DNA of 64,000 nt from Takakia lepidozioides. Its lineage: Eukaryota > Plantae > Bryophyta. This document shows positions 11,491 to 36,030 of this stretch, piece after piece; positions within the stretch are counted from its first letter, which is position 1, and every line of letters begins with the position of its first letter. Made by a program: the position numbers and the translations under genes. The stretch is taken from positions 23,684,001-23,748,000 of the forward strand of contig CM060733.1 of assembly GCA_030704615.1 (NCBI GenBank), read 5' to 3'. The notes below the pieces were generated by a model. The model had not been told where the DNA came from. It saw only the letters and a program-made list of their open reading frames with translations, and did no database searches.

Positions 11491-12524
11491 TGTCAAGTTA
11501 TTTTACCACTAGTGTGAAACTAGCTAGGAAATAGCTAGCTTTTACATATTGACATTTGGGATTGGCCCAAGCGTCAATCCAGGGGTCAAGACAGATTTAG
11601 GCCCTGGAGTGGTTATCTTCACGGCAAGCGCGGGAGGCTCATCTTTCTCGAGTTGAGCCTCACCGCGCCTAGCTATGGCGCCGTAGTGTGGATTCCCCAT
11701 GGCGTGGGGTGCACTTGGCTTGACTTGTATTTGAGTGATGAAGTTATATATGCATGAGTTTATGCTTCAGATTTGTGAGCTCGTGCTTGTATTCTTCTTC
11801 TTTATCACTCGAGAAAGATGAGCTCGTATCTGTGAGTGCCAGATACGAGTTAGTTGTAGCACTTGTGGTTTTTGCTTGAGAATGAGAGAAACCAAGTTGT
11901 TATGCAAGAGCACCGTGGAGCTCTTGGTTGTTAGAAGCGGAGGCGATGTGGGTACGAGGTGGTAGACCTTGGCATTCGATCTTCAGCTTCAGAGATGAAA
12001 GCACCATGCTGCAGGTAATTCCAGAGCACCTTGATGGTTTCAAATTGTGTACATGCATGAGCAAGCACGATTGGGCAGATGACCAGTCAAGAGCAGGTTA
12101 TAGTGGCTTTGGTGGCAAAGCTGAGAACTGGACTTGGGAATGCGAGCTTTCATTGTGTGAAGGATTGCAAGACCAAGCGAAAGGGCTGATTTGGCTTGGG
12201 GCAAATCAGTGCACTTTGTGGAATATGGTGAGATTGGGTTTCAATCTCGAGCTTCAGCATTGAGAGGGCTCTTGTCATGGCAAGAGCAGGGCTGGAACAG
12301 GAGCTAAGAGGTGCGGCAAGGCCATGGAATGTGCACCTAGGGTTTCAGAGCTTGGAAGAAGAGCTCTTGCACCACAAGAGAAGTGTCTTGTGGCTGGAAA
12401 TGTAAGCCTTAGGGTTTCAGGAGCTGGCAAAGGTTGTGGAGTGCTTAGTCTTGTCTTAGAGAGCATCAAGGAGCCAAGGAGCCAAGATAGGGGGCTGATA
12501 TCTCTTGTGTGAAGAGGTTGCATG

Positions 12525-12965
12525 TGTTGAGCATGTATTCAGCTCATTGAAGCTTCCATCTTCAAGCTTGGAGGACAAGCAAGGAAGAGGGAAGGGCTGA
12601 CTTCCCTTATGTGAGGGCAATGCGTGTGTGGAGCATGCTATCAGCCTGGTGAAGGCTTGTACTTTCAGGTGTGGGAGTGCAAGAAAGGAAGGAAGGGGCT
12701 GGTTTCCCTGTAGGGCATGTGGAGCATGCTTTCAGCCTGTTGAAGCTTGTATTTTCAGGTTTGTGGGTGCAAGAAATGAAGCAAAGGAGCTGATTCTCTT
12801 ATGGTGAGAGTGGGGCATGTGTGGAGCATGCCTTCAGCCCATTGAGGCTCTTGTTTTCAAGCTTTAGAGAGCTAGAACGGAAGGTCTAGGGCTGGTTTCC
12901 ACTTGGAGTGAAAGAAAAGCACTTGTAGGGCCTATGTGAGTTGGGGTTTCAACTTCAAGCTTGAA
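12525..12965 (+). repeat. Degenerate ~90-100 bp tandem repeat inside the LTR/leader
   Basis: Recurring gagcatgc..tcagcc..tgaagcttgt..tttcagg..gcaagaaa..gggctg units starting near 12529, 12631, 12721 and 12823. Confidence 0.6.
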
Positions 12966-13338
12966 GGGAGCGCAACTCTTGAAGCAGCAGGTGTAGGGGG
13001 CTGGAATAGGCTCTAAGACAGATGCTATGGCCAAGGAAAGTGCTTGAATGAGTGCTCACAAGGGCTGGGAACCAGCAGGGCTTGGTTGTTTGCCATTGAG
13101 TTTAGTGGCGTGTTTGGGAGGCTAAGTGAGAAAGAAGGCTTGGTTTGTGGCAACCACCTCATGGCTTAGGGCTACTATGGTGGTGTGTGGGAGCCGAAAG
13201 AGCAAGAATACCTTGCTGATTTCCTCACAGCCGCCATAGCTCGGTGGAAAGAAGCCTAGAGTCCAAGAGACACAAACCCTAGCTTGGCGTGGCTAAACCC
13301 CTTGGAGAAATGGCTAAACTGCCAGAGCGGCCATGGAT

Positions 13339-13830
13339 GGGGCTGTGATGGGCTGTCCCTGTGGCCTTGGGGGCTGTGATGGGCTGTGAGGGGCTGTGCC
13401 GGTGGCCTTTTGGGGCTATGACAGGCTGTGCCCATGGCCTTTAGGGCTGTGAGGGGCTGTGAGGGGTTGTGAAAGGCTGTGCCCATGGCCTTTGGGGCTG
13501 TGAGGGGCTGTGAGGGCCTGTGAGGGCCTGTGCCGGTGGCCTTCGGGGTTGTGACGGGCTGCGCCGGTGGCCTTGGGGGCTGTGATGGGCTGTGAGGGGC
13601 TGTGATAGGCCGTGCCTGAGGCCTTCGGGGCTGTGAGGGGCTGTGACAGGCTGTGCCTAGTGGCCTGTGGGGCTGAGACGGGCTGTGACAGGCTGTGGCG
13701 GGCTGTGCCCTGTGGCCTGTGGGGCTGTGACAGGCTGTGGCGAGCTGTGACGGGTTATGAGGGGCTGTGACAGGCTGTGCCCAGTGACCTGTGGGACTGT
13801 GACGGCTGTGACCAGTGAGCTGTGTCGGCC
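13339..13830 (+). repeat. G-rich 10-bp tandem array (GGGCTGTGAN) with a higher-order ~40-60 bp period
   Basis: Dozens of gggctgtgag/gggctgtgac units punctuated by gtgcc..tggcc(tt) spacers. Confidence 0.9.
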
Positions 13831-14508
13831 TGTGCTGACTCGTGGAGGCACTGGTGAACTGCCTAAGGACTGGCATGTGGTCTTGAAGGCCGAATTTTGA
13901 AGCTCGTGGAGGGCGGTTTGAGGAGTATCTTCATGATATTCCCATGGTCATGCAAGTGAGGGAAGAGAGGAGAGGAAGAGTGTTGGGATGAGGGCATGCT
14001 AGGGTTAGGCATTGCTTTAGCTTCTCTTCCTCGTAGTTTCCACCCTCTCATTAGGCCAAGACCTTTCCGTAGGTGGAGGCAAGAGTCAGTCCAGGTTTGG
14101 GCTGGGGTGTCCTTGCAGGAGCAACACCGTGGAGTTGTTTTTGGTGTGGGGGAGTTGTCGTTCTGATTTCTTGTTTTTGGATCCCCTCCATACCTGCATG
14201 CTTGACTGTGCGCCATGCTAGTTTTGTGTGGGCGCTTGTTTTTATAGGTGATTGGTCCGGATTTGATCACCGGCCAGTCCTAGAGCATGCTGTCGATGGT
14301 GAGGCTGGGGTGATGACCAGCCAGACCATCATTGTTTCTCCTGTGGTGAGGTTGGAGGTGATGACCAGCCAACCATAGGAGTGCTTGCGGTGGATGCAGA
14401 TACAGGTGTAGGCTACGTTAGGAACTTAGTATTCCAAACCATAAGCCGCAACAGGTTCTCTACCCGGTGACCTTGTGGAGAGGGGGTTAGGGACATGTTC
14501 ATGACTAG

Positions 14509-15770
14509 TTGAGTGTCAACACGGAGGTGCCACTAGTTGCTGGGGACAGTGCCGGTTCGAGCACTAGCGATACTAGTGGGTACACGAGACGAGGTTTGCG
14601 GTTTAGGCCACCTTCACCTCCTGTGTCTTCTACGGAAGTTTCTGATTCGGATTGTGAATCAAGAGGATTCATACCGGCGGTGCAAGTTGTTTCTTTGCCA
14701 TTGTTGTGGGACACAATGGAGGAGATGTATGGAGCTACCAAGGGGCCACGAAGGTACTCTGGGGCGGTGGACACCATTGAGTTGGATGATTTTATCCAAA
14801 AGTTTGATAGTTGGTGTGATTTGCAGCAAATGCGCAATCCACAACTATTTACACCTTTCATGGCATGGAAGGGGCTGTTTCAGCACCTTGAGGGGCCGCC
14901 TATGGATGATTACCATGAGTTCAGGCGGGGGCATGAGGTTGAGATCGAGGAGTGGAGGATGTACTGGTCACCCGACTATGTCTCCATCACTAGGGGCACT
15001 AGAGCCACGAGGGCATTGGCTACACCTGCCGCTGCACCGGCAGCTTCAGCAAGTAGCAGTGGGACTAGTGGGACTGGTGGTATAGTAGCTACGACATCCA
15101 CCCAAGCCACTACCGCACCAGCACTAGCACCGTGCCTGCCTTCAACCCTGTTGTGGAGTTCTTCGAAGAGTTGAGAGGAAACTACCAAGGGGTGAGGACA
15201 GAGAAGTTGCGGAGCTTGCAAGAGTTCCAACGGAAGCCGACCGAGAGCTTGAGGAAGGCTTTCACTCGCATGAGGCGCTTGATAAATGTAACCCAAGGGG
15301 TTACAGAAGCTCAGGCAGTCCAATTTTGGTATGGGATATTGGACAAGGAGCTGAGGAGAAGGGTGCGGGATGCAACTCTCCTACAAGCGGCCCAACCCAC
15401 CTTAGCAAATGTATTTTTGCTGGCAGAGCGGATAGAGCTCAACATGGTGGAGGAACGAGTGGTCATGGTGAGATTTGCTAAGGAGACACCACGGGGTAGT
15501 GGTGCTCCTAGCCAACCACTACCTCAACGTGCTCAAGGCAACAAGGGGGCTTAGGTGAAGCTTAGGAAGGGCAGAGAGGACCTTAGATGCAGGGGTCTCT
15601 CCCTTCATTTGCTGGCCAACAACGGGCGGATGTGGTGTGCTGGACATGTGGAGGACCCCATGTCAAGAAGGATTGCCCAGAGGGAGGCAAAGGGCCGGCA
15701 CATGCACAACCTGCACAATTGCAATGTGGGCATTGTGGCAAGCACGGGCATGGAGAGGCCCAGTGTTATG
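14509..15770 (+). pseudogene. Gypsy gag (capsid plus two CCHC nucleocapsid knuckles), frameshifted
   Basis: LDDFIQKFDSW, FQRKPTESLRKAFTRM (retrotransposon gag major-homology-like region), CWTCGGPHVKKDC and CGHCGKHGHGEAQC. Frameshifts at ~15130 and ~15554. Confidence 0.85.
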
Positions 15771-16639
15771 GTTTGCATCCTGAGTTGCGTCCAGGTCAGT
15801 TCCAAGGGAACAATGGTGGCCGGGGGCGAGGTGGAGCAGCCCAGAGAGGACGAGGAGGCCAGCCACGAGGTGTAGGCCAAGGGCAAGCTCAACATGGCCA
15901 AGGACGCGGAGGTCAGGGTGTTGACCAAGGCGTGGCCAACCGGCTTCAGCAGCTAGAGCAGAGGCTCGCTGCCATGGCTATAGCTCAGGTGGTACCGGCT
16001 CTAAGGCCGGATGGTCCACCTCCTGCTCCTGAGGGAGGAGATATGGGAGGCATGGGATTCATGTGTGGAGCAGCAGTACCACTAGTGCAAGTGGAGTCTG
16101 TTGCAGCCGTGACTCGAGGAGCAGCACGAGTTCCTGAGCCACGAGGTGCAGAGATGGAGTTGGATCCACAGCATGGGGAGGCAAGCCATCAGGCTAGGCT
16201 TCCTCAGTCATTCACATTGGCGGAGACAGTGTCGACGCCATCCATGGCACCTAGCTCTCGCCCGACTGTTACCAAGGCGGAGGTTACTATGCCATTGGGG
16301 AGAGCTACACGGGTAGCACCACTACCTAGTGTTGCCAAGGCTACGGCAGCTATTGTGCTGCTAGGAGCGGCCACATCTGTGTGCCAGGCTCCATTGTTCT
16401 CGGCTACCATGATTGCGACGCCGGGGGTAAGACCAGATGAGGTGTTCAGGCTGGCAGCTACACTCTGTGAGAGTGGGGAGGTTACTTCATCTTCTGCGGA
16501 GATAGTGGGAGGTGTAGTGCCGGAGGGATCCTCAGATTTGAGGGTCAAGACTGCTACGGCGGCGCCATGGCAAGCTGCAGCTGCCAGGTTGATGGAGCTG
16601 CCAGCTAGGCCAGCCATTGAGCGCGCCATGGTGACACCT

Positions 16640-17040
16640 GAAGTTGTCATGTTAGACAACCAGGATGGCATTATCTGTTTGAGTGGACCGGCAGGCAAGA
16701 GGTACCAGCCACTGCGGGTCTTGTTGGACTCGGGAGCTCAGCCACTGATGCTGGGCTGAGCTGCTATTGCAGGCTTGGGCCTCACGGAGGCGGATATGGA
16801 GCCTTGTCCTTTCCAGATACAGACGTCTCTGGGAGGATCGGAGCAGGCTTGGGCATGACACGGCGTGAGTTGGCTATCAGACTACGGCCGGATCATCCTA
16901 CAGATGGCTCAGTGATGCGAGCCAAGGCCATTGTGACAGACGTGGTCTCCTACGATGTCCTGGTTGGTGGGGCAGTGTTGTACCCCATGGGCTTCACCCT
17001 GGATTTTTTGGAGGAGTCAACTTCCTATAGGCCTGCATGG
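16640..17040 (+). pseudogene. Retroviral-type aspartic protease, copy 1
   Basis: VLLDSGA catalytic motif and YDVLVGGAVL C-terminal motif. TGA at 16757 and a 1-bp deletion at ~16850 relative to copy 2. Confidence 0.85.
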
Positions 17041-17439
17041 CAGTCAGGGGAGGGCCGACGTGTGCAGCTCCCTGTGACGTTCATAGGAGGAGTTGCGGTT
17101 GCCCAGCGAGGCAAGATGCCGACACTAACAGCATTCACAGCGGCAGTGAGTTGGCCTACAAAGTTGCTTGAGGGAAACGCTCATTCAGAGGATGTGCCAC
17201 CTCCGGGAGAGCAGGATGACAAGTATGGTATGGCGGAGTTGCCTACCATGGTTGCTCAGACTCCATTGTGGGGCACGAGCAAGGATTTGCAGCGGGATGC
17301 TGATCGACGGGTGCAACAAGCCTGGGTGGAGGTTTTTGTACCATCAGGAGAGGAGGAGAGTGCGGGGATTGCACCAGGACCACCTCACTTGTCTCCATTG
17401 GACACCACACCTATTGTGTGGCAGTATCCGGATGAAGGC

Positions 17440-18290
17440 ATTTGTCTTCTGGACTTGTTTGGCAGGATCAGCACCGGATTGGCTGCTGTGTTACAGGCAG
17501 GTGTACGAGTTCGGCATTACATGTATGTGGAGAGGGATGAGACTGCACGATGCGTTTCACTTTGCCATGTTGCTCAGTTGGTGCAGCGGTACCCTGAGTT
17601 GTTGTCGGTGTCTGCAATTCGTGGATATCAACAGGCCTTGCCAGCAGACATTTTGTTGCTGGGGGCGCAGGATTTGGAGCGGGTTGGCTCCATTGATCTG
17701 GTAGTGGCAGGTTGGCCCTGCCAAGGGCATTCATCAGCCGAGCATGGCAATGGATTGCGAGACTCGAGGTCGGGTCTGTTTTGGGAGATGGTGCGGGTTT
17801 TGCGCCACTTGCAGCTTCATCAAGCTGTATCTCCAGCATACATCTTGGAGAATGTGCCACTGATGGGCGATTCTCGGGCCAGGGTGATGGCCAGTGTGCA
17901 TCAAGTCCGGTCGTGGCTTGGGTCAGCAGTGTTGCTAGATGCAGCTACAGTGGGGTCACGGGCTCATCGTCCACGACTATGGTGAACTAACTTGATGCCA
18001 CCCGCACTGCTCAAGCGTGCATTTGATGGGGTGCAGCGGCCAACACATCTCACAGTGGATAGCATCCTGGACACAGGGAGGCAGTCTCAGCGTGTGAGAC
18101 ACGATGACCGTTCGCCTTTGGCAGTGGTCAACAAGGTGGGTCAACCACGAGCATCATTACCTACACTGCTCAGCTTCCCAGGATCGCATGCTTTCTGGGA
18201 TAGTGGACCTGGCCTCCTGTGGGATGCTCAGTTGCAGCAGTTAGTGGAGCCTAATGCTGACGAGCGTGAGCGGGCAATGGGTTTTACCAC
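17440..18290 (+). pseudogene. C5-cytosine DNA methyltransferase domain (DNMT3-like) in the Gypsy polyprotein, copy 1; motif X missing
   Basis: I LDLFGRISTG, II YVERD, IV DLVVAGWPCQ, VI YILENV, VIII AHRPRLW*TN, IX ERERAMGF. Confidence 0.9.
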
Positions 18291-18291
18291 T

Positions 18292-18412
18292 TGTACTATA
18301 GGTACTTTCTATAGTCATCACCTACTTCTAATCTTAAGGTCCAAGCTACTTTTAGCCTTAAGGTACTTGTAGACCCAAGCAAATACGAAGCCCTTGCCTT
18401 AGGGCATGGCCC
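18292..18412 (+). repeat. Dispersed repeat fragment joined to the broken end of Gypsy copy 1
   Basis: Reverse-complement homology to 39243-39366 (tgtactatagg...cttaaggtccaagc...gcatggcc). Confidence 0.7.
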
Positions 18413-19440: not shown

Positions 19441-21632
19441 TAGGAAATGAAGATTAATTAGAAATAAAACCATTTTTGGTTAAAAAAGAAAACAAAATCC
19501 GAATGGTGATTTTTTTATTTTCTTTTTTTTAAAGAGGTGACTATTATTGATGTACCAGTAGTGAATGGGGCTTATTCAGCTCAGCTGTTCTATTAGTCAA
19601 AACAGCTATGGTTCAGTTTGCATCTTTTTTTGGGGCCCTGCATATGCAAAACCCACTAAAGTAGGTACTAACTTAGTGGTGCACTAACTTAGTAAGGAAA
19701 GGAGAGCGCTCTTCTCCTTTATATATCCTCTCAGAGCGGCGGCCCGACCCTTCAATCTGGCAGGACCTTTCCCCCACACATGTCACCCCTAGAAACCACC
19801 TCTGACACCTTTACTCTACTAACCCCAATTTGGCGCCCCAACCGTCCTCCATCGTGTCTGCTTCCTCTCCCACAGTCTTTTTTTTGGAGCCCCTTACACA
19901 GGGGTTATTTCTTCAAGTCCTTTTGTAGCTTATATGTAGCTTACTATATACTCCCCCTTCTCAATTCCTATACATCCTCTAATGGACAGGGCCCACGCAA
20001 ATTTGGGGGCTTTTTTAGCTCCTTCACAAATTGCATACACGGTGAGACAAGAATTAGACTGGCTTTTTAAAAAAAAAGAGAAAGGGGACAGTGGCCCTTT
20101 TAATCAAATTAAATAAAAGGTGTCACAGTTGATGGAAAAATAACCACCAAAGGGGTCTTGTACGCTTACTGTGGGGGTACATCACCGCAGGAATTTGAGA
20201 TTCACCCATCAATTTCAATTCTTTGAAAACATGTTAAGAACAAGGTAAGAATAGTAGTATGCCTCATAGTCTATAGCAAGAAAACTGCACACCACACCCT
20301 AAGCAAATAAGAAACCTAATGAGAGAGAGGGAGGAGATTGAAGCCTCCAGCTTTCAGGCTCTCTGCTCACTTGCCACATTTCATTTTTGTTTTCAAATTT
20401 TAATGAAAGGGGACATAAGGTCGAAAAACATTTTATTATTACTATTATTATTTTTGCATACCTATATATGTATCTAGTTATTAAACTTAAAACCCGGACC
20501 CACCTAGTTCACCGGTGGTATGGTGGGTTGGGGCCCGGGTTCATTTTAGGGTATTTGGTCATGATGTGGGTAACACGCCAGGTACCTGGGGTCCGCACAA
20601 GACCCGAAAGTGGCTATATACCTATATACAAAGAGTGAAATATGTTAAGAGTAGGTCTTACTGTTGTCCGTGTCTCGTACATCGATCGTGTGGATCTTTC
20701 CTCCGTGTTCTTTGCAAAAAGACTTACAGAGTAAGGTCCTCTAACTTAAAGTGATACGGTCTTACGTAAAGCTATTTGGTAAACTGAAAGCTTGTTGACC
20801 TCTGACGTTCCACCTGCCACTTTCGCATGATCAAAGCACGATGCTTTGTCAACAGCACTGCCGTCTAACGCCGTAGCAAGTAATCTCCCAGCTTCGAAAT
20901 TCCTGGAAGTAAAGCAACTGAAGAACCCAATTGGGCATCTCTCCCAAGATGCCATTTGCGGTAAGCCTAGCGGCAGATCCAGATACACAAACTAGTCTGT
21001 TGCACCTCTCTTTCACCAAATTTCCGGCTTTGTTGTGATAATCGAGACTATTGTGAAGTTTTAGTTTTCATGATAGTTCACTGTAGCAGCTAGAAGACGA
21101 CAGATCCGAAGGACTGAGCAACACCTGAAGTTACTCAAAAGCCTCTACTTGTTCTCTAAATCTCATTCAGCAATGAGGATGACCCCCGACTTTTAGTTTA
21201 GGAACTAAAATATGTCAAACAACCTGTTTGACTGCTGCAGCACTTGCCAATTCATCAGAAAATACTCCCATGAAGCCGCTTTTGCAACGACTCGGTAATC
21301 GGGTTGTTGACTTGAGCGAAGGTGTTCTCCTGTGATTTGACAGAGGAACCATAGGGTTTCATAGTCTGGTCCAAATTAATTATAGCTAGCTATGTATGGA
21401 CTCCAGTATAAGTACTATGCTCTATGTTGTTTTCTAGTCATCACGGTGTTTCGTGACCTGAGAGATGAGCTGCAGCCGAATCTCGCTTCAGTAGGGCCTC
21501 TACCGTTGTGTCTATCGTTTAGCTTGAACATTGACCTCTCAACATTTTACAAATACTGGGCTGGGAAGAGATAAATATTCTGGACCTATTCTGGAGTGGA
21601 CCTTAGCTTGAGTGTCCCACCAACATTTTCCC

Positions 21633-22709
21633 ATGGCGACACGAGCGAACAGCCGAGGTGGAGGGCGTCTCCAGCAGGTGGCATTTACGATTATGCTGCT
21701 GCTAATACCGACAGATTTTCTGCAGCTGACTTCTGCACAAGCTGAGTGTGGGTCGGGAGCAAGCAACGCCAAGTGTGCAAACAATTTGTGCTGTAGCCAA
21801 TATGGGTACTGCGGAGATACAAGCGCTTACTGTGGTACCGGGTGTCAAAGCCAGTGCTCATATGCAGCTCCCAAGGGTATCTTCCCGGGGCACATGCTAT
21901 ACGATTACATTGGAGCCAATGGCATCTCTATATACTTCACTGATATACCGATCACCAACAGCGCAGTGGATTACATTCTGGGCTTGTCATTCGCCATCGA
22001 CATGAACTCGACTGGAGCCACACAAAACGGAATTCATTCAGTTTATTGGAATCCCACCCTGAGCACGACTGCTGCTAAAGCCTGGAGACAAGCTCATTCG
22101 AACGCCAGAATTGTCATCGCCATTGGTGGATCCGAGTTGTACGGATCTAACGGAGTATACCCTGTCAACTGGTATAACCCGGCCAACTCCACAAAGTGGC
22201 TGGCGAATGCTGTGTCGTCCCTCACCACAATCATCCAAGCCTATGGCGCCGATGGCATAGACATCGATATTGAGAACTTCCCCAATGGCTCCACCAACTT
22301 CGTCTCTCTCATTGGCCAGTTGATCACGACGCTCAAGAACAATGGAGTGGCCAAAATCGTCAGCATCGCCCCTGGCTACGATCAGCTGGCGCTGTACACA
22401 ACACTTTACAACAGCTACAGCAACTACATCGACATTGTGAATTACCAATTCTATGGCGAAGGTCTCGACACTTGTGCGAAGTACGAGGCAAGATACTACC
22501 AAGTGATTCAATCCCTGCCGGTGACCAAAGTGGGACTTAGCACCCAAGTGGCTGATCAAAACACTACCATTTCCGGAACTACTTTTGTCAATTGCGTGTC
22601 TACGATCAAAAGCAACAATTCAATTCCTGGAGTGTATTTGTGGAACGCAGATCTTTCCAAACAGAAGGACAATTTTACCACAGAGAAAGAGGTGGCCGCA
22701 CTGTTTTAG
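21633..22709 (+). CDS. Secreted chitinase: signal peptide + hevein/CBM18 domain + GH18 (class IIIb/narbonin-like) catalytic domain, intronless
   Basis: Hydrophobic N-terminus. 8-Cys hevein [40 protein letters not shown]18 motifs [18 protein letters not shown] (DxDxE intact), [14 protein letters not shown]. Confidence 0.92.
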
Positions 22710-23575: not shown

Positions 23576-25973
23576 AGTAGTACTTCTCCACTTTTGGACT
23601 TGACATATTGAATTCAAACCGGTGGGTTTCCTTTTATATTCCTCGATACTCATTTCAATGCCTGCCAATGTTTTGCTCTAGATACAATGATGGTTTTATG
23701 TCGTTTCAATAAGTCCTCATAGTCCTATTCTTTCTCTCTTACCGTTTTGTTGTGGTGTCCCCCCTATTGTGAATAGCCTTTTAATACCATTTCTTTGACT
23801 CAAAGTAAATTCAGTAGATGTGTCTCAACTAGTGACCTTTGTAATAATTCAAACCCAATTTGTATAGGCTAGTAGAAATTATGGTTGTTGGTGTTGGAAA
23901 AACTTTAGAACTTTCTAGGTTCTCTGTTTCTAGTCATGCTCTTGGCTGCTCTAAGGTTGGGAGCAAGATTGAATGCTTGAAAAACCAACACTACAATTGA
24001 TCCCATATTCTTTCTTTGCATGTCCAGAGAAAATAAGAGTTTTAAGTTCTTTTCGTTAAGCTCACTTTGTGGCCCTTACGCTTCCTAGTGTCAAGCTTAT
24101 GTCAAGTTATTTTACCACTAGTGTGAAACTAGCTAGGAAATCACTAGCTTTTACATATTGACATTTGGGATTGGCCCAAGTGTCAATCCAGGGGTCAAGG
24201 CAGATTTAGGCCCTGGAGTGGTTATCTTCACAGCAAGTGCGAGAGGCTCATCTTTCTCGAGTTGAGCCTCACCGCGCCTAGCTATGGCGTCGTAGTGTGG
24301 ATTTCCCATGGCGTGGGATGCACTTGGCTTGACTTGTATTTGAGTGATGAGTTTATATATGCATGAGTTTATGCTTCAGCTTTGTGAGCTTGCATGAGCT
24401 TGTGCTTGTATTCTTCTTCTTTATCACTCGAGAAAGATCAGCTCGTATCTGTGAGTGTCAGATACGAGTTAGTTGTAGCACTTGTGGTTTTTGCTTGATA
24501 ATTAGAGAAACCAAGTTGTTATGCAAGGAGCACCGTTGAGCTCTTGGTTATTAGATCGGAGACGATGTGGGTTACGAGGTGATAGACCTTGGCATTCGAT
24601 CTTCAGCTTCAGAGATGAAAGCACCATGCTGCAGGATTGTAAGACCAAGCGAAAGGGCTGATTTGGCTTGGGGCAAATCAGTGCAGAAGTGGAGTTGGAT
24701 CCACAGTGTGGGGAGACAAGCCATCAGGCTAGGCTTCCTCAGTCATTCACATTGGCGGAGACAGTGTCGACGCCATCCATGGCACCTAGTTCTCGCCCGA
24801 CTGTTACCGAGGCGGAGGTTACTATGCCATTGGGGAGAGCTACACGGGTAGCACCACTACCTAGTGTTGCCAAGGCTACGGCAGCTATTGTGCTGCTAGG
24901 AGCGGCCACATCTGTGTGCCAGGCTCCATTGTTCTCGGCTGCCATGATTGCGACGCCGGGGGTAAGACCAGCTGAGGTGTTTAGGCTGGCAGCTGCACTC
25001 TGTGAGAGTGGGGAGGTTACTTCATCTTCTGCGGAGATAGTGGGAGGTGTAGTGCCGGAGGGATCCTCGGATCTGAGGTCAAGACTGCCACGGCGGCGCC
25101 ATGGCAAACTGCAGCTGCCAGGTTGATGGAGCTGTCAGCTAGGCCAGCCATTGAGCGCGCCATGGTTACACCTGGAGTTGTCATGTTAGACAACCAGGAT
25201 GACATTTTCTGTTTGAGTGGACCGGCAGGCAAGAGGTACCGGCCACTGCGGGTCTTGTTGGACTCGGGAGCTCAGCCATTGATGCTGGGCAGAGCTGCTA
25301 TTGCAGGCTTGGATCTCTCGGAGGCGGATATGGAGCCTTGTCCTTTCTAGATACAGACGTCTCTGGGAGGATCGAAGCAGGCTCGGGGCATGACACGGCA
25401 TGAGTTGGCTATCAGACTACGGCCGGATCACCCTACATATGGCTCAGTGATGCAAGCCAAGGCCATTGTGACAGACGCGGTCTCATACGATGTCGTGGTT
25501 GGTGGGGCAGTGTTGTACCCCATGGGCTTCACCCTGGATTTTTGGGAGGAGTCAGCTTCCTATAGGCATGCATGGTAGTCAGGGGAGGGCCGGCGTGTGC
25601 AGCTCCCTGTGACGTTCATATGAGGAGTTGCGGTTGCCCAGCAAGGCAAGATGTCGACACTAGCAGCATTCACACCGGTAGTGAGTTGGCCTGGAGAGTT
25701 GCTTGAGGGCTACGCTCATTCAGAGGATGTGCCACCTCCGGGAGAGCAGGATGATATGTATGGTATGGCGGAGTTGCCTACCATGGTTGCTCAGACTCCA
25801 TTGTGGGGCACGAGCAAGGATTTGCAGCGGGATGCTGATCGACGGGTGCAACAAGCCTGGGTGGAGGCTTTTGTACCGTCAGGAGAGGAGGAGAGTGTAG
25901 GGATTGCACCAGGATCACCTCAGTTGTCTCATTGGACACCACACCTATTGTGTGGCAGTATCCGGATGAAGGC

Positions 25974-26915
25974 ATTTGTCTTCTGGACTTGTTTGGCGGG
26001 ATCAGCATCGGATTGGCTGCTGTGTTACAGGCAGGTGTACGAGTTCGGCGTTACCTGTATGTGGAGAGGGATGAGATTGCATGACACGTTTCAATTCGCC
26101 ATGTTGCTCAGTTGGTGCAGCGGTACCCTGAGTTGTTGCCGGTGTCTGCAGTTCGTGGATATCAGCAGGCCTTGCCAGCAGACATTTCGTTGCTGGGGGC
26201 GCAGGATTTGGAGCGGGTTGGCTCCATTGATCTAGTAGTGGTAGCTTGGCCCTGCCAAGGGCATTCATCAGCCGGGCATGACAATGGATTGCGAGACTCG
26301 AGGTCGGGTCTGTTTTAGAAGATGGTGCGGGTTTTGCGCCACTTGCAGCTTCATCAAGCTGTATCTCCAGCATACATCTTGGAGAATGTGCCACTGATGA
26401 GCGATTCTCGGGCCAGGGTGATGGCCAGTGTGCATCAAGTCCGGTCGTGGCTTGGGTCAGCAGTGTTGCTAGATGCAACTACAGTGGGGTCACAGGCTCA
26501 TCGTCCACGGCTATGGTGGACTAACTTGATGCCACCCGCACTGCTCAAGCGTGCATTTGATGGGATGCAGCGGCCAGCACATCTCACAGTGGATAGCATT
26601 CTGGACATATGGAGGCAGTCTCAGCGTGTGAGACACGATGACCGTTCGCCTTTGGCAGTGGTCAACAAGGTGGGTCAACCACGAGCATCATTACCTACAT
26701 TGCTCAGCTTCCCAGGATCGCATGCTTTCCGGGATAGTGGACCTGGCCTCCTGTGGGATGCTCAGTTGCAGCAGTTAGTGGAGCCTAATGCTGACGAGCG
26801 TGAGCGGGCAATGGGTTTTACCACTGGTACCACGGCGATGTCGTCTCTTTCTGAGGCATCACGTCGTCAGGTGTTGGGGCAAACAATGGATCTCAATTGC
26901 TTGACCTGGATTATC
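25974..26915 (+). pseudogene. C5-cytosine DNA methyltransferase domain (DNMT3-like), copy 2, spanning motifs I-X with two premature stops
   Basis: LDLFGGISIG, YVERD, WPCQ (Cys codon 26253), GLRDSRSGLF, ILENV, AHRPRLWWTN, ERERAMGF, RRQVLGQTMDL. Stops at 26082 and 26316. Confidence 0.92.
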
Positions 26916-27289
26916 AGCTTGGCTATGGCTGGGCAACGTAGAGTGCGGAGTGCACTTCCCTTGACGGTCTCTCTGCCTACCGAGACGGTACAGGCAGCGA
27001 GTGGGGGTGAGCCGGTGAGGACCATGGGGTGTAGACATCCATGGCACACGTGGGAGGTGCTCGAGGTCCAGAGGGAGTTGGCAGCCAAGGCAGCTGTGAT
27101 GGATGAGGTTGGGGATTCTTCTCGGGTTGAGGAGGTTCTCAATGATGAGATGATGGGGCAGGATGAGGCCTTGTCATTGACTGAGCAGGAAGGGAGTACT
27201 GCTCAAGAGGTTGCAGCATAGCAACCACGGGACGCGTCCTCTACCTCTAAGCCCACTGGACTTAAGGTTGCAGTTACGGAGGACAATTG

Positions 27290-28162
27290 GGAGCCTGACA
27301 TTGGACCCATTGTCACCGGAGGAGAGAGACGACGTATGCGGCGGTTCCTGAGGGCTTACAGGAATTGCTTTGCCTTCAGTTTGAAGGACTTGGAGCACTG
27401 AAGGGTCAAGAGATTCGCATTGAATTGGCTACTGACACGCCAATCTTTCGGAGACCCTATAGATACAGTGACATGGAGAGGTCCTTGATCCAGATGAGAA
27501 CTCAGGATCTTTGGGAGGCAGGTTTGGTGGAGCTCTCTGGTGGAGAGTATGCTTCAGCCACAGTGATGCCAGTCAAGAAGGATGTCTATGACAATTGGAC
27601 GGAGAGACGTATGTGCGGTGATTACCGGCCTGTAAATCGTCAGACCAAGTCCGATAGGTATGCCATGCCAACACCAGAGGAGATCTTTGATGCCATTGGG
27701 CATTCCAAGGTCTTTAGCACGTTGGATTTACGACCCGGATATCACCAGTTGCCGATCAAGGAGGCGGATAAGCAAAAGACGGCATTCTGGGGGATCAATG
27801 AGCACGGGAAGGATTGCCTATACCAGTGGCGGTTCTTACCATTTGGGCTTAAAAACGCTCCTGCTGAGTTTCAAAGGGTCATGGACAGGATTCTAGCAGG
27901 GGTGGAGTTTGCTCGGTGCTACATAGATGACATCATCATCTTTAGTGCTACGGTGGAGGAGCATGAGAGACACATTCAGGGGGTATTTGAGCGCTTGAGT
28001 ACGCACGAATTGAAGTTACATCCGGGAAAGTGCAAGTTTTTCCACAACCAGATTGAGTATCTGGGTCACATGATATATCCTGGAGGATTGGGGGTACAGC
28101 AGACTAAGGTAGAGGCCATTGCACAAATTCCACGCCCCACGGATGTGAGCCGACTTCGAGCC
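27290..28162 (+). pseudogene. Gypsy reverse transcriptase
   Basis: RRPYR, RMCGDYRPVN, STLDLRPGYHQ, KTAF, LPFGLKNAP, YIDDII, KCKF, YLGH. One frameshift at ~27393. Confidence 0.95.
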
Positions 28163-28318
28163 ATAGTGGGCAGCATAGTGGTAGCCTAGTGATTGACTAG
28201 TTGTAGCCTAGTGGTTGGATTAGTGGTGGACTAATGATATACTAGTGTGTGGCGTGCACATGTGTTGTGTGGTTTTGGACAGCGATGTAGTTGTGTAGCG
28301 ATATGTATGCGCACGATA
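28163..28318 (-). repeat. Second copy of the 542-682 repeat, abutting the truncated RT
   Basis: Reverse-complement match to 544-680, including the CTAGTGG sub-repeats. Confidence 0.7.
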
Positions 28319-29617
28319 CCTATGAAGATGGCGCAAAGTGTATACTTTTTATTCGCAGGTTCCATATGGAGGAAATGTTATTGGTATACAATCAGCACGA
28401 GGCGTACCGTGTGTTCCTACTAAATACATGTTGCTCTATACACACAATTGTCTCATTGTCTAAGTTCTTTATATTGCCAGTTGTAGTGTATATTATAGTA
28501 GGAAGACCTCTAGGATTATCACCACTATTTTTGTAGATCATGTCCGTTTCGACTGCTATTGGTATGTATTGACAAAATTACATGAAATCGTCAACTTCAT
28601 GAACTTGGTTTATGAGACGAAATCAAGTGAGGTCAAATATCATCATATTGCACCATTTCCCTAACCTTCCAAAATCACCTTTAAAGTTTACATTGATGGA
28701 GTGATAGAGGTAGTATATTGCAATGAAGCGAGTAGTAAGAGGTGATATGGGCAAGGCGGTTAATGAACAATATTAGATACACTAAAGCAAAACAAAGAAC
28801 CAACTATATTAATACAAAGATATGTGCATAATCGTAAATATCATGTAAACACAAAATACAAAGACACACATATGTAGAGAGTTTCAGCAAAAAGGAGACA
28901 AGTATGTATATCGAAGGATCAAAATGTTGACATCTTCATATCAACAAATTGAGAATTTTGGATTTCAGTATGTGCGCCTAGTGCACATGATCATCAATAG
29001 TGCTATAATAGCAAGCGTGAAAATGAAGACTAGTACAGTGCGTGATTAATTACACTATATTCTTGTCTATATTTGCTTTAGTGTTATATATTATTGATCT
29101 TGAGCAACAGAGGTTGCATAATGAGAATGTTCGAAATCAGCTTGATATCCATCTTATCATAAACTATAACAAACTATAAACATAAGTATACTCATGTATT
29201 AACACTCCTGTACTGATTGCCAGAAGTTGTCAATGAAACTGAACAAATTGATCTTGTCACATCTAGTTTTGGTTGACCTCTGAAATACTATTCTTGAGAG
29301 ACAATTCAGTGTGTAGAAGAAGGTCAAGGTGTTAAGGCGCAACTGAGAACATCATGATTTCTGCTGGTTCAGTCACCACAATTCATTTACATCAATTGAT
29401 ACTCCAATTTTTTGAAATGTGGTTCTGGCCCGAGTTAATCCAAATGATCCCTGTATTTGAATCCCGCCCAATTTATAACATCAAAGTGTCTCTATGTAAG
29501 CATACTGGCCATTTGCTAGGCTAAAGAATCATGAATTTTGTGTGCTAGCGATCAAAAATGGTACATAGTGGTATCTTCAACCATTTTGGAAGGCGCCTAA
29601 TTAGCTAAGATTTCTTT

Positions 29618-31723
29618 CTACACATCACAATTTGACTCTCGACTGGACCTATTGCCAGAAGTTGTTTGATCCACAACTCTTTGAAGCGCTTCCTGCACCT
29701 GACCGATGCTCTGGTTTTGCTCCCTGGTCATCTTCACACACCCAAAACACACACACGATGAAGAGCCATGAGCTACATGCTGCAAGCTGGTCATCCATAT
29801 TTTGAAGAAAAGTATGCTCCAGCGACTATCTGGGTTCAATCTAGGGCCCTGGATATCGGAGATGAAATCTTCATCTCCTGGATACTCTCCTGGATACTCT
29901 CTCCCGACTGGGTGAGGTCCACTTAATCAACTGAACTCAACTTACTATCGAACCATTGCAAGAAAAGAGAAATTTACTAGTGCAGCACAAGGGAAACCTA
30001 AGAATGTGCACAGTTGCGAGAGGATATTAGAGGACTCACCATAACTGTCAAGGTAACGTGAATCCGACCGTCTGTGCAATTGGAATTCACAAAGAGTACC
30101 TTCATCTGAAAGTCCCTTAGAACAGTCAATATTCTAATCAGTGTTTGTGGTTGGTCGTTGGCCTCCACTTCGATGCGCACAGTCAAACGACCTGAGCCGT
30201 CAGGGGACTCATCTACTCTTAGGACATTCGCTCCTGTGGAAGCTTTTGATGTGCTTGAACCTGCATGGATTGTAGAAACTCCTTCCACTTCTGGAACCGT
30301 GGGCGTTTGAGAACCTCGTGGAGCGCTGGTACAGCCCACTTCCTGTCTTGAGGGGACCGAGGACGACATTTGATCAAGGAGAGCCTGGGGCATTCGCTTT
30401 TGTAACTGTTCTACCGTAGTTGTCAGCTGATGTATAAGCTCGATGGTTTGAGTAAGTATTGATACCTTGTCTTTCTGTTCAAGCAGTGACCGCAGGTTAG
30501 GATGCATGTTCAGCTGAAAATAGAGAGAACTTCCCGTTTTCTTACAAAAGCAACAGAAAAGTACATCCGATTGTCCTGGCCACAGCCTTGAACAGCGCTA
30601 TGACAAAAGGGCAATCATGGGAACCAACTGTACATAGGGATTTGAAGCGATTTACCTTTTTGATAGTGGGAAGTAGTTGGGAGAGAACAGCGATTTTGTC
30701 ATTGAGTTTCGTTCTTCTTTGTCGCTCTGCCAACTTGTGAATGCGTGCAGCTTCATCATGGGCTGGATTCGAGAATCCCCTCGTAGTGCTCCCAGGACTG
30801 CTTACATTACTCTTAATTTCATGACTTACCCCGGATGGTACCCTATGTCGGCCTAAATATTCCTGTTGTTGATTCTCTTCAATTATCAATGGAGCCAAAC
30901 GTTCTCTCCATTGCAGAAGCAGCGACCGACGTCTTCTGGTGCATTGAGAATGCTCTGATCCCTGCAAACGTGCCCCCAGGCCTTGAAAGGGGGATGTGCG
31001 GGAGTGCTGAAAAGCCACAGGCCGCATAGAGACAATGAAGCTTGGATCACGGCTACGCACAAGCGGGGCCTCATAGGTGGGGATGGTAGCAGTTGTAGAC
31101 GCCAACACAGTAGGGTTCTGTCCCAAGGCAGAGTCTCTGCTTTCAGTTTGTTGTGGTGTAGATACCTGGCTCGTCTGAACGCCATGAGACCTTGCTTCGA
31201 GTAGTTGGGAGACAGATGATGGAAGTGAAGGAGTTAAAGGTAACTGCGGTTCAGAATATGGTCCAATTGGGTTCTGCATGGTAGATGCCAAGAGTAAGTC
31301 TTCGGCACTTTGATCGACGGGCAAATCCCACTGGAAATCTAGCAGTGATGTACTAATCGGCAATCTTCTTGCATTCAAATCGACCTCGTTCAAAACTGTT
31401 GGGGCCTGCCCAACTGTATTTCCAAACTCTACAGGCTGAAAGTCCTGAAATAAGTTCAGGCACCCAAGAGTATCATTGAAAGTGGAAGGCCGACTAGATT
31501 CTGGAACCTGTGCCATTAGGTTTGGGTTCGACACAAGAGCGACACTAGAAATGCTGAACGCCGGGTCCCTCGTGCCTTGATGTTCCAGAATTGACCCATG
31601 TCTTTGCTCCTGGAGGAGGCCTGCAGTGGAAGTAGAAGCTCTGGAATCGATAGTGGATCCTTGTCCCTGGGAGATTCGAGGAGAATTTGGGAGACCCTTG
31701 TCGTCAGATAGAAAGCTTTTCAT
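29618..31723 (-). CDS. bHLH transcription factor with C-terminal ACT-like domain; exons 31723-30656, 30474-30040, 29731-29618
   Basis: HKLAERQRRTKLNDKIAVLSQLLPTIKK|KDKVSILTQTIELIHQL is the bHLH, with an intron in the loop. VRIEVE..QTLIRILTVLRDFQMKVLFVN is ACT-like. GT-AG junctions keep the frame. Additional 5' exons cannot be excluded. Confidence 0.85.
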
Positions 31724-32982
31724 ATAGCTTATAATTTCCTCGGTTTCAGGTACCTACCGCGCAATATCCATTAGTTAGCACTTTTGAGTGTCCCCTTCAG
31801 AGTTTCAGAACCAGCTGTAACTTCAACTCTACATAAATTGCTATTGCTCTGGCCTCTGAACCTTGATGTCTAACCTAAGCTTATAGAACAAGTTTAGCAC
31901 TTTGAGTGATTGGACCGAAGCTTAAGCATTCATGACCGATTCCCTGGAGAGCTGCTCGACTGTCCAGATAATGAAGAGCTAATTCAAGTTGGCATCAGCA
32001 ACCTGAGTTCAAGAGACTATTTCCCCCCTAGTTCGTGATTGTTTCCCCGTTGAGAATCCTTAGAAAATCACATATTACTTGTCAAGTAAGACCTGGAAGG
32101 CAAACAATCTTACAAGAGCAGTGGTTGCCAACTCCACACAGCATCTGCCATCAGCTCCAAGTCCTGGAATGCACACAATCGTCTGTTCATAGCAATGAAC
32201 GATGAACCGTCAAATTTCAATATTGCATGTTCCCATAGGTGCGAGCTCATGTTTATTTGAATTGTAGAGATTGTACACGGTCAGTGCACTCAGAACGCGT
32301 TGACAATGTGCTCATCACTTAAAATGCTACCTAGAGACAATTTTAAACTGACTTGTACATAAGTGAGCACTATTTTTGTTGTGCTAGTGCCTCTAGAGAC
32401 AATGTCCAGTCGCCACTTTCTGTGTCAAATAGTACAATGCAGAGGTCTACAGTGTCCAAAAGATGGTGTCTCAGTTTCAATTTCTCGTGAAAGTGACCTA
32501 TACATTCAAACAGATTTTCAAAGGTGTCAAGTACACGAGCGCATACTGACCTGAATCTGGGCATCCTGTGTTTCAGTCGACCGCACATTATTTGAAAAAG
32601 ACAAGCAGAATCGAAAGTCAGTGGGAGCGAAATATTGAGGGAATTCCACGATACTTTGATTCTTATGCATACACACATCACTCCTGGGCATGCCGAAGGA
32701 CTAGTACAACATTAACACAATCTATATATTCACAAACGTCCACTTATGATGATGATACACAAGATTTTCATAGAGAGCACTTGTAGAAAGGGATGTCCAA
32801 AGGTCTTACCTGTAAGAACCGAGTTTTCATTTCGTTGGTGGGAAACTCTACCATATTTCGTGTCCACCAAAGAGGGGAACCCCGTTGTAAGGCGAAGGCT
32901 GCATAGCTGCAGGTGTGGACAACATAATATACGTTAGGTTCCAAAGCCGGGGGTGCTCAGGAAAGTAAGTACTCCCGAAAGA

Positions 32983-33115
32983 GAAATGAAATGAAATGAA
33001 ATGGTGCTTTATAACGTCCGCGGAAAGCTCGTAGAGCTTATGGGACAAAATGGAAGAAAACATGAGAGAGGAACAAATCCAGAAACCACAATTAATGTTC
33101 TAGCGATTGTCTAAG
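32983..33115 (-). repeat. 5'-truncated RTE-type LINE 3' tail
   Basis: Reverse complement of 35173-35305, including the (CATTT)n tail. Shorter pieces at ~33703-33754 and ~35776-35815. Confidence 0.85.
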
Positions 33116-34129
33116 AGAAATGCGACCTGGAATGTGCACAAAAGCAGAACTTAGGGCTGATCATGCCTGGTATGATGGGTTGAGATTTGTTCTGGTGATT
33201 CAAGTAGAATCTAGACTCGACTACTTCTCATTTGAAGAACTTCGCATGTAAGAGAACCACACGATAACGCAATAACTTTGCACACTTCAAGGACTTCCAT
33301 TCAAGCTTTAGCTACAAGAATGTAGACGGGTTCAAGCCATGGGTTAGTATACATACCCATGGCCAGGTTTCAAGCGACAGGATCTGAAAACGAGAGTGAA
33401 GTATTGCTCAAGTCGACGTTGGTTCCCGTACTCCACGTTTCCACCGAGATACCAGCCTTCCTTCCAAACCAGCTCCCTGAAGGTGTACCCAAGGGAAGAC
33501 TTTCTTTAGCTCTACCATCACTACAAACTGCCATAACAATGCACAGTACATCCAGGTATGAGGAGAATTCTTGAAAGAAACGTATTATTGGCCGGGAAGG
33601 GCCCCATACCAAGGAAAAGAGAATGTACTCATAAGACGTTGTTTGCCGCAGCCTTGTGGCCATAGAACCCCGCGCTCAGTTTGGGCGAAACAAGAGGAGA
33701 AGAGAAATGAAATGGTGCTTTATAACGTCCGCAGAAAGCTCATAGAGCTTATGGGTATTTTCCATCGTGGACATTCAAGGTGCAAGTTATGCCTCTTGAA
33801 GACGCGTTCACGTATCGCTGGGACCCATTTGATTTGACCAAGGTACGTCTGCTCGTCCTTCTCTGTTGTTTGTGGAAATTACATCAGTGATGGAGAATAT
33901 GGTTTGCGACCCGACGTGAAATGGATGTGGAATAGTTTGGATCTGTTTGATACCAGCTCGCAGAGTCGCATTTGATGTCATACTCTTCTGGTTTCTGGAG
34001 GTACTCTACTCTGGCCATTAATGGACAATGTATGTGCAGGTGTGGCCTCACAAGGATTATCCGTTGAGAGAAGTTGGAAAACTCGTTCTCAATAGGAATG
34101 TCACAAACTACTTCGCAGAGGTAATCTGA

Positions 34130-35305
34130 TCGGAGATTCATCTTCAACCAGCAGGAAATTGAGATTGTGAAATCATACCGGTACCTGGGTCTGGTTATCC
34201 ACTCCCCCAAGTTTCACTTTGCAACCACTGCCTTGGACAGATTGACTAAAGGTAAGGCGGCCTCCGTCCGCCTTCAGGCCAAATGCAAGCAAATACATCT
34301 GCGGCATCCCCCGACCAAAAAGTGGCTGTTTGACACCGTCGTCAGCCCTGCTACCATCTATGGTTGTGAGTTCTGGGCACCTGGTGTCCCTGTCTCCTGG
34401 TGGGAAAAGAATTTGGAACCATTAGTCATCTTTTCTCCAAGCAATGCTTGGCGCCAGGAGCACAACTCCATCTCAGATCCTAGGTGCAGAGTTCGCATGT
34501 GTACCATTGCAATCCGAGGCCCTCTTCAGGCTTACAATCTTTCTCCACAGATTGCAGGCCCTTCCACCCAAAGGGCTAGTGGCAAGGGCCCTCACAACAT
34601 CTATGAGGCTCAAAGCTGCAGGTTTCAGGAACTCCTGGTATGCTCGAGTGGACAGTTTATTTCAACGTAACGGACTTTCTACTGCTTTCCTATTACCAAT
34701 GAACCCAGATGAGGTGGACATCACATCCAGACATGACCGCAACAGACTCATTAGGAGAGAGCTTATGGAATTACATGTCAAGAGAACTTGGAAGCTACCC
34801 AATCTCACGACAAAGCTCCACTTCTATCGAGAGACATTCTTGGTGCTCCGCGATGAGAGAATCTTGAGACCAAATTACCTTTCAGCACCCTTCTCTCCTT
34901 CCCTCCTGAGGGCATTGGGGCGGTTCAGGGTGGGTTCCCACAACCTACGGATAGAGACTGGCAGATGGGAAAACCTGCAACGGGAGGACCGCCTATGTCC
35001 AGCTTGCATATGGCGCAGCAAGGAAATTAAAACTGAAGAACACTTCTTCTTCGACTGCTACGAGATCCGTGGGAGATTCCACTGTTTATTCAGTGGAACC
35101 CAAACTCTCACTGATGTCTTCCACTATGAGGATAAAAAATGCTTGGCAGCCTACCTACACGAGGCCTTCACCCTTAGACAATCGCTAGAACATTAATTGT
35201 GGTTTCTGGATTTGTTCCTCTCTCATGTTTTCTTCCATTTTGTCCCATAAGCTCTATGAGCTTTCCGCGGAGGTTATAAAGCACCATTTCATTTCATTTC
35301 ATTTC
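34130..35305 (+). mobile_element. 5'-truncated non-LTR retrotransposon (RTE/RTEX-like): RT thumb, C-terminal zinc motif, 3'UTR and (CATTT)n tail
   Basis: YRYLGL, LFDTVVSPATIYGCEFW, RFRVGSHNLRIETGRW..CPAC..EEHFFFDC. Stop at 35196 and a microsatellite tail. Confidence 0.85.
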
Positions 35306-36030
35306 CCCGGCGCACATGGTACCTGGTATTGAAGCATCACCAGACCGTGTGCTGCAATCGCGCTTGTTTGCTTACGATGATACCGCCCGGTACCGATTGG
35401 GAGCCAATTACTTGCAGGTGAAGATCCCTGATTGCCCTACCAATTTCTGCTTGCATTGAAATACACAAGTTTCATATACATGTCAGCTAGATTGTCCTTC
35501 TCCGCTCCGAAGTTGCCATTGCTTGACATTGATATTGGGTTTTACAGACATAAGTTCTGCACATGGAGGTTTCTTTAACTCCAGAGCGGTCTTATGCTGC
35601 AGATTCCTAAGCGTGAATTTGCTTCGTATTCTTACTTCAATCTGAGTTGTGATTTCATGACGATGATGGTATAGTCGACCTGTCTGAGGAAAAAGTAGGC
35701 TAGAGTACAACTGAATTGTCTTTCTTTATTCACTGTGTGGGCAAATTGTGGCTGCAGATTCCTATCAATCGATGTAAATGGAAGAAAACATGAGAGAGGA
35801 AACAAAACCAGATCCAATAATAAAAACTATTGCTCGAGTGTTTGTCTACGGGTGAAGGTCTCGTGCAGGTAAGCTGCCAAGCATTTCTGATCCAGAGAGA
35901 GAGAGAGTACTCATAAGACGTTGTTTGCCGTAGCCTTGTGGCCATTGACCCCGTGCCCAGTTTGAGCGGGAACAAAAGGGACAGAACCTACCTCTGTCAG
36001 GGGCTGACGTTGGTAGTAAGACTTACCTTC

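Follow-up and report, generated by a model that had tools for sequence, protein, structure and literature searches.

A stretch of 64,000 nucleotides from the moss Takakia lepidozioides (GenBank assembly GCA_030704615.1, contig CM060733.1, positions 23,684,001 to 23,748,000 of the forward strand), referred to here as the window, was analysed computationally and found to hold two related copies, 95.5% alike across 2152 bases, of a Gypsy-type retrotransposon with a C5 cytosine DNA methyltransferase (DNMT) domain. An earlier note on this DNA had proposed such a family in a land plant, and this was upheld by selection on the domain and by its co-inheritance with the reverse transcriptase (RT). What appears from the sequences to be new is the land-plant host, the placement of the DNMT in the Gag open reading frame (ORF) by way of a conserved and likely leaky stop codon, and an end structure suggesting an unusual mode of replication.

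Methyltransferase domain and state of the window copies

The methyltransferase motifs of copy 2 were located at 25992 (FGGI), 26250 (PCQ), 26382 (ENV), 26496 (AHRPRLWWTN), 26796 (ERERAMGF) and 26862 (RRQVLG) and lie, like the LDSGA motif of the protease and the YIDD motif of the RT (Table 1), where the earlier note had read them. The full motif set had been claimed for both copies, which did not hold: copy 1 reads FGRI instead of FGGI, has a stop inside motif VIII and is missing RRQVLG, and copy 2 contains two stops. The proposed order of gag, CCHC knuckle, protease, DNMT and RT is a composite of the two copies and is complete in neither of them, although it was found whole in the intact metagenomic relatives L048 and L081. 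Both window copies are dead, and no remnant of RNase H, integrase or PHD finger was found within the window.

Pfam profile PF00145 matched copy 1 (42.7 bits, E 6.5e-11; the cut-off is 22 bits), in agreement with the first assignment, and RVT_1 matched copy 2 with E 3.5e-31. The gag of copy 1 was 60–77% identical to a Marchantia protein (P0124); its Retrotrans_gag match (E 0.002) was under the Pfam cut-off, and a zinc knuckle was visible in the translation.

A 65-row profile of the domain was compared with solved structures, with scores of 100 bits for DNMT3A, about 89 for DNMT3B, 53 for DRM and 37 for HhaI; on five phage methylases the same profile scored 68–75 bits. The predicted structural model (pLDDT 95.5) was closest to DNMT3B (Z 28.5, root-mean-square deviation 2.7 Å across 275 residues), followed by DNMT3A (Z 27.1), M.MpeI (Z 24.9) and HhaI (Z 22.6). 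The catalytic cysteine was present in 63/64 filled alignment rows, the glutamate of ENV in 63/65 and the motif VIII arginines in 62/65 and 58/63. By profile, motifs and predicted fold, the domain qualifies as a genuine C5 cytosine methyltransferase. Its domain order is not permuted, unlike that of DRM, as had been stated before and was confirmed by sequence and model alike.

The label ‘DNMT3-like’ is used here on the basis of profile and predicted fold, not of a tree. To this extent the likeness noted earlier stood, with DNMT3A and DNMT3B as the nearest enzymes; against it, the window domain taken as a single sequence scored 33–46 bits on the five phage methylases versus 35 bits on DNMT3A (settings not identical). 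Searches of a cluster atlas yielded nothing beyond generic clusters of chitinases and methylases; of the three top-ranked methylase clusters, two were from phages. According to Pfam, DUF3444, which marks host plant DNMT3, was in none of the element proteins, and ORF1 contained nothing besides DNA_methylase, protease and knuckle, with no targeting domain on the DNMT. Observed/expected ratios of CpG and CHG in the element gave no hint of the enzyme's target.

In-frame stop, host range and selection

The earlier note had the DNMT fused to the RT in one frame, but a TAG conserved in the family stands in frame between them at 27219–27221. Eighty metagenome loci were picked by their DNMT and can therefore not reveal members without it; the RT-side linker was visible in 50 of them. 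The loci include duplicates and one family dominates, 34 sharing a single peat-moss-type context, CAACCC ATG. An in-frame stop was found at the same place in 47/50 junctions (36 TAG, 11 TAA), the remaining three being one TAC and two frameshifted junctions. The TAC (L029:6960–6962), which may be due to chance, encodes tyrosine, the residue reported for readthrough of the tobacco mosaic virus (TMV) type (PMC2754532, cited like the other papers here for the part of its text available).

The stop was followed by CAR-YY in 45/47 junctions, compared with only 5/399 of the upstream in-frame stops. All four YYA codons were found (CCA, CTA, TTA, TCA), yet they encode three amino acids. As peat-moss-type copies dominate, the independent weight of the stop context is that of the divergent types, which read CAACCA in the window, CAGTTA in L047/L048, CAATCA in L056 and L081 and CAATTA in L069, with L020 as a further type. 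Among 1505 contigs of host run X1, no variant of at least 5% was present at 27217–27227, while positions 27215, 27216 and 27229 vary. Speaking against a leaky stop, the full CAR-YYA, which TMV readthrough requires on the 3' side of the stop (PMC2754532), was present in only 8/47 junctions.

In L048, a 1369-codon ORF1 with protease and DNMT, one TAG and a 1047-codon ORF2 share one frame. Pfam identified RVT_1, RT_RNaseH, Integrase_H2C2, rve and PHD in this ORF2, with the D, D and E residues of the integrase visible, so that the RNase H and integrase sought in full-length copies are present; the Asp_protease_2 match was under the cut-off. L081 has the same layout (long ORF1, TAG, ORF2 in frame). 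Six Marchantia ORF1 proteins have their C-terminus 98 residues past motif X, and many relatives end about 100–150 residues past it; forms with a single ORF and no stop are Closterium P0161 and the unnamed P0175 and P0256. The DNMT is the end of the Gag-protease ORF, and the stop and its context are conserved. It is likely that the UAG is leaky and that its occasional readthrough yields the RT-RNaseH-integrase-PHD part, which would set the dose of the enzyme at the level of Gag, not of Pol. The earlier suggestion of a DNMT packaged together with the RT had to be modified, since the domain belongs to the Gag-protease ORF and not to Pol, and would hence not be packaged 1:1 with the RT.

Host assignment was based on a BRUTUS-like hemerythrin gene (56446–64000, + strand). 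In a tree of 25 rows (none known to be a hornwort), built from nine pieces of its exons, the window was placed among mosses, as sister to Physcomitrium and Sphagnum, with 100/99 support, contrary to an algal or contaminant contig, which the earlier note had considered. The family is abundant in its moss host, as 44,305 contigs of run X1 map onto the 4.4-kb copy (contig depth is not a copy number).

Named relatives, mostly of 55–72% identity, were found in Marchantia polymorpha, Marchantia paleacea, Calypogeia, Riccia and Sphagnum, and more distant ones in Closterium and Monoraphidium. A 50%-cluster search returned 425 relatives at E 1e-10 or better, and most of the long matches within the best 150 were retroelement polyproteins, which does not fit the one-off capture that had also been considered. 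None of the names among the matches listed (120 of 175; 53 of 53) was that of a tracheophyte or of Physcomitrium, weak evidence as most matches are unnamed, and no relative was found in viral contigs. L081 and L082 are whole eukaryotic retroelements in contigs labelled as bacterial metagenome-assembled genomes (MAGs); L081 is intact, and circular via a 45-base overlap.

In long relatives the DNMT is placed either in the protease-RT gap or in the RNase H-integrase gap, and a C-terminal PHD finger is usual. In the RT tree (33 rows), the 20 rows with the DNMT between RNase H and integrase were on one side of a branch with 100/98 support; the stop-bearing type (7 rows) formed a clade (100/99) that groups with single-ORF elements of the Closterium type (100/98). 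The DNMT tree (48 rows, quick method) gave the same split, and the domain is therefore co-inherited with the RT and travels with the element. Marchantia P0126 was assigned to the stop group by protein ends alone. The RNaseH-DNMT type is a large sister group (P0162, P0164, P0248, P0270 etc., L065, L082) with Monoraphidium as its only named member; DNMT-bearing Gypsy elements of chlorophytes were not met in the open literature. The unnamed polyproteins P0171 and P0330 combine a related C5 methylase with a Dam-like methylase, reminiscent of the dual-methylase elements of a 2026 preprint.

The DNMT is under purifying selection. The dN/dS ratio, for which the earlier note had taken a value near 1 on internal branches as contrary evidence, was 0.13 for L047/L048 at a dS of 0.25, and about 0.07–0.25 between lineages, where dS is near saturation (many pairs were saturated and gave no ratio). 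Ratios on the other side were 0.40–0.51 among peat-moss-type copies and 1.7 between the window copies, whose domains are separated by 5 synonymous and 25 non-synonymous differences; these ratios are expected for decay and are no proof of current function. Transitions made up 72/94 differences between the window copies.

Element ends and replication route

The family does not have the paired long terminal repeats (LTRs) supposed earlier but split direct repeats of the form A...B-A-B. Elements start with TGTC, end with GACA and are flanked by a 4-bp target duplication, which in the seven relatives with both ends was exact in L010, L057, L063 and L066, had one mismatch in L029 and L038 and was ambiguous in L032. 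Split repeats with B-A-B at the 3' end were present in L004, L015, L042 and L063, and in host contigs A is joined to B as well as B to A, the latter with two intervening letters. At the B-A joint stands the palindrome GACA-GC-TGTC, intact or decayed, as was also found in L048, L081 and the distant L065; L082 had no GACA-NN-TGTC junction. A G-rich purine tract lies directly 5' of B, and not of A.

No tRNA primer site (TGG) was found behind A. Instead, 12–17 bases behind A exactly complement a site inside A in the window, the peat-moss type, L048, L081 and L065; the sequences of these predicted self-priming duplexes differ, yet match within each of the five lineages. For the peat-moss type, 17 loci were considered, of which 3 had no usable end motif. 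In the 14 tested, 2 or fewer of 200 shuffles were as good in 9/14 loci, the match was weak (8–9 nt) in 3/14 and there was no signal (6 nt) in 2/14. The 3' part of repeat A also folds with a second, weaker pairing, the exact match being situated further upstream. Purine tract, palindromic junction and self-priming duplex were found in L065, a member of the sister group, as in the stop-bearing family.

These features make it likely that self-primed reverse transcription would give a cDNA with B-GC-A at both ends. Somewhat less than an even chance is given to the next step, in which the cDNA ends would be joined and the integrase would open the palindromic GACA-GC-TGTC junction; the end structure suggests that a circular intermediate is opened by the integrase. 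One cut in an internal palindrome of the joined ends would produce exactly A-internal-B-A-B, and a circle with one repeat would produce the common A-internal-B form, as in copy 2. No Pfam family of tyrosine recombinases was found in ORF2, which contains the rve integrase instead. Several points weigh against this route: the mirror form A-B-GC-A, predicted by a symmetric circle, was found in 0/21 5' ends, the A-internal-B form can alternatively result from recombination between B repeats or from assembly collapse, and the circularity of contig L081 could reflect a collapsed repeat. We take the end junction to resemble the circle junctions of IS3 and IS30. Altogether the ends point to a replication route of self-priming, split repeats and junction cleavage by a DDE integrase, and the family would be expected to escape LTR finders that depend on paired LTRs.

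Table 1. Features of the two element copies and of a repeat fragment in the window
Feature	Position	Strand	Remarks
Copy 1	11491–18296	+	gag and zinc knuckles present; DNMT incomplete (without motif X); without RT
Copy 1, 5' repeat A	11491–11807	+	starts TGTC; 93% match to 24100–24430
Copy 1, predicted self-priming duplex	11637–11823	+	17 nt; 11807–11823, just 3' of repeat A, exact reverse complement of 11637–11653; 0/200 shuffles equally long
Copy 1, long 5' untranslated region	11824–14715	+	tandem arrays 12579–12839 and 13339–13834
Copy 1, gag with two zinc knuckles	14716–15800	+	frame broken by frameshifts and one stop
Copy 1, aspartic protease	16640–17060	+	LDSGA at 16724; broken
Copy 1, C5 methyltransferase motifs I–IX	17422–18296	+	PF00145; next repeat starts before motif X
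Copy 2	24100–28318	+	gag lost via internal deletion; ends inside RT
Copy 2, left target-site duplication CTTA	24096–24099	+	right CCTA at 28319–28322, one mismatch
Copy 2, 5' repeat A	24100–24426	+	starts TGTC
Copy 2, predicted self-priming duplex	24250–24438	+	13 nt; 24426–24438 exact reverse complement of 24250–24262; 0/200 shuffles
Copy 2, two deletion joints	24635–24685	+	most of the 5' region and entire gag gone
Copy 2, aspartic protease	25170–25590	+	LDSGA at 25258; contains stops
Copy 2, complete C5 methyltransferase domain	25956–26936	+	327 codons; stops at 26082 and 26316; frameshift just upstream
ORF1 C-terminal tail	26937–27218	+	open, same frame as DNMT
In-frame TAG then CAA CCA	27219–27227	+	predicted readthrough signal ORF1/ORF2
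ORF2 remnant, linker and RT	27228–28160	+	RVT_1; YIDD motif at 27920; a frameshift near 27391; cut off at the end of RT
Copy 2, 3' repeat B	28161–28318	+	ends GATA (family form GACA)
Repeat B, lone fragment	544–688	-	ends GACA; 84% match to 28171–28316

The first deletion of copy 2 (24635, compared with 12016–12157 of copy 1) corresponds to a stretch that reads GT...AG in copy 1; its loss could reflect either splicing of a 5' intron or a deletion at microhomology.

Known systems, proposed mechanism and alternatives

The closest described element is KnitGypsy-Dnmt3 of the alga Klebsormidium nitens (de Mendoza et al. 2018, PMC5890265), which has in common with the moss family the Gypsy domain set, an intronless, non-permuted DNMT3-like domain under purifying selection, and A-coding-B-A-B repeats of the DIRS type. 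Its DNMT is in the Pol ORF with the RT, whereas the stop of the moss family puts it at the end of Gag-protease, and its host is an alga, whereas the present family occurs in a moss and has liverwort relatives. Neither ‘PHD’ nor ‘readthrough’ occurs in the main text of PMC5890265, where Fig. 4c may bear on both the stop and the PHD finger. No match was named K. nitens. The family looks like a land-plant branch of this algal kind, so that the element-encoded embryophyte system of the earlier note is retained as a land-plant family but not as a separate invention.

Ty3/Gypsy elements are matched in the protease-RT-RNase H-DDE integrase order (in L048, not in the window), the TG...CA ends and the short target duplication; two identical terminal LTRs with a tRNA primer site were not found. 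Self-priming, with the 5' end of the RNA paired to a site behind the 5' repeat, is shared with the Tf1/sushi (Tcn1) chromoviruses (10.1101/2022.12.06.519325), which have ordinary LTRs and a chromodomain; in the moss family the repeats are split, and a PHD finger is present instead of the chromodomain. An in-frame stop lowering Pol is shared with Tj1/Tosmo (PMC6317226), although there a TGA lies between Gag and protease, and here a TAG after protease and DNMT. PAT/Ngaro and SymbioDIRS-Dnmt3 have A1-B1-A2-B2 split direct repeats (PMC4157794, PMC5890265), and the latter carries an active DNMT3 (PMC5890265); unlike PAT/Ngaro, the moss family has a DDE integrase, a protease and 4-bp target duplications, and no tyrosine recombinase. 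UAG-CAR-YYA of TMV-type (type I) readthrough (PMC2754532) was found in the window and five other sub-lineages, unlike CAACCC of the commonest peat-moss-type copies. Host plant DNMT3 (PpDNMT3a/b) of non-flowering streptophytes has the same non-permuted DNMT3-type catalytic domain (PMC6453930), with DUF3444, whereas the element domain is without it and inside a retroelement ORF.

According to an opinion paper (PMC6338049), such elements do not occur in ‘land plants, such as tracheophytes’, and later papers write ‘streptophytes’ without naming land plants in the text available (PMC12344493, 10.64898/2026.05.21.726589). In the available parts, the plant LTR survey PMC6317226 has no passage on a methyltransferase, PHD or Marchantia, and PMC11982613, 10.1101/363937, PMC11096116 and 10.1101/2021.11.30.470311 contain nothing on the family. 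In the open literature (subscription journals and repeat databases being outside the search), no description of a land-plant family and no paper on the ORF1/ORF2 stop were found, and split repeats with an integrase only in the 2018 paper. Methyltransferase-carrying retrotransposons are extended here to land plants. Intact-looking ORF1 copies, annotated as hypothetical proteins, are present in the genetic model Marchantia polymorpha, and the role of a transposon's own DNMT thereby becomes testable in a plant.

In the proposed mechanism, the particle would be built from Gag-PR-DNMT, and the DNMT would probably be freed by the element protease and packaged. It would then methylate newly made cDNA in the particle, so that new copies would resemble host chromatin or arrive quiet, and the PHD finger on the integrase would steer integration. 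The chain as a whole, from a leaky UAG through a Gag-level DNMT in the particle to cDNA methylated before or at integration, is put at evenly balanced chances, and that catalytic activity on cDNA is the selected function is likewise a midway judgement. SymbioDIRS-Dnmt3 enzymes methylate CG in yeast (PMC5890265); against the mechanism, KnitGypsy-Dnmt3 did not methylate yeast DNA, which its authors regarded as inconclusive (PMC5890265). More speculatively, and on balance doubtfully, a whole green-lineage clade of integrase retrotransposons may self-prime, join its cDNA ends and integrate by cutting an internal palindrome like circle-forming insertion sequences. Its land-plant members would load an active DNMT at capsid stoichiometry by means of the leaky stop, so that each new copy would arrive pre-methylated and the element would write its own methylation in moss and liverwort genomes, perhaps also marking which of two identical junctions is cut.

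The DNMT might instead act mainly in trans, in the nucleus, on host chromatin, rival elements or its own older copies, limiting damage or favouring insertions. The place in ORF1 would give a large excess of DNMT over RT and integrase, beyond the need of one cDNA, the integrase bears a PHD finger, and self-limitation is one of the roles that PMC5890265 (section 11) considers for the algal elements. We consider this unlikely, since Pfam finds no targeting domain on the DNMT and the domain shifts its position in the polyprotein yet stays in the element, which fits a role in cis; decay of the window copies (18/170 CG, 26/286 CHG and 28/750 CHH sites) fits ordinary host methylation. That the domain is retained because it binds DNA or acts as a covalent clamp, helping to join or protect cDNA ends, with methyl transfer secondary, is quite improbable: the unusual ends do need an end-joining step in the proposed model and no activity of the Klebsormidium enzyme was seen in yeast, but the S-adenosylmethionine-binding motif I and the catalytic residues are conserved, the predicted fold is complete and the SymbioDIRS-Dnmt3 relatives do methylate CG (PMC5890265).

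Readthrough itself could be replaced by splicing or reinitiation, which would leave the DNMT in ORF1. Ogre elements presumably splice between protease and RT, and the TAG is a possible splice acceptor in peat-moss-type copies, which read TTTTTGCATAG; in public annotations, Marchantia and Sphagnum gene models bridge the stop to connect DNMT and RT, doing so at four different positions, as would be expected of annotation work-arounds, and the single contig of run X8 (taken to be RNA by guess alone) runs through the TAG with no joint. An ATG two codons past the stop in 34 copies (CAACCC then ATG) speaks for reinitiation and against readthrough, but none is present there in the window, L020, L045, L047, L048, L056, L069 and L081. 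With the frame kept and tails of 100–137 codons, a bypass by splicing or reinitiation is rather improbable. The idea of a single capture event that brought in a fragment of a host or bacterial methylase, or of contamination by algal or bacterial DNA, merits almost no credence. Phage methylases do match the domain, at E as low as 9e-13, and two close relatives come from contigs labelled as bacterial MAGs; these contigs are whole retroelements, however, and the 425 clusters, the neighbouring BRUTUS gene, the contigs of run X1 and the lack of DUF3444 stand on the other side. Capture and contamination were refuted by the family data.

Besides the element copies and the BRUTUS-like gene, the window contains an apparently intact single-frame chitinase gene between the copies (21612–22709, +; chitin-binding domain and GH18) and, just downstream of copy 2, a bHLH gene with an ACT-like domain (29998–31753, -). 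Copy 1 is inserted into a LINE remnant (7722–11490), in which a zinc knuckle is followed by an endonuclease (PF03372, 10467–11156). Strand skew is very strong (GC skew 0.39–0.46) over about 4.5 kb at 2000–6700, where the minus strand has long frames of low complexity. At 41100–42300 and 53240–53670, a cluster of nested repeats (direct and inverted, 67-bp units) is probably another mobile element. Dispersed short repeats were found at 32983–35980 and 48200–48380, and a possible LINE tail frame, with no Pfam match, at 34125–35196.

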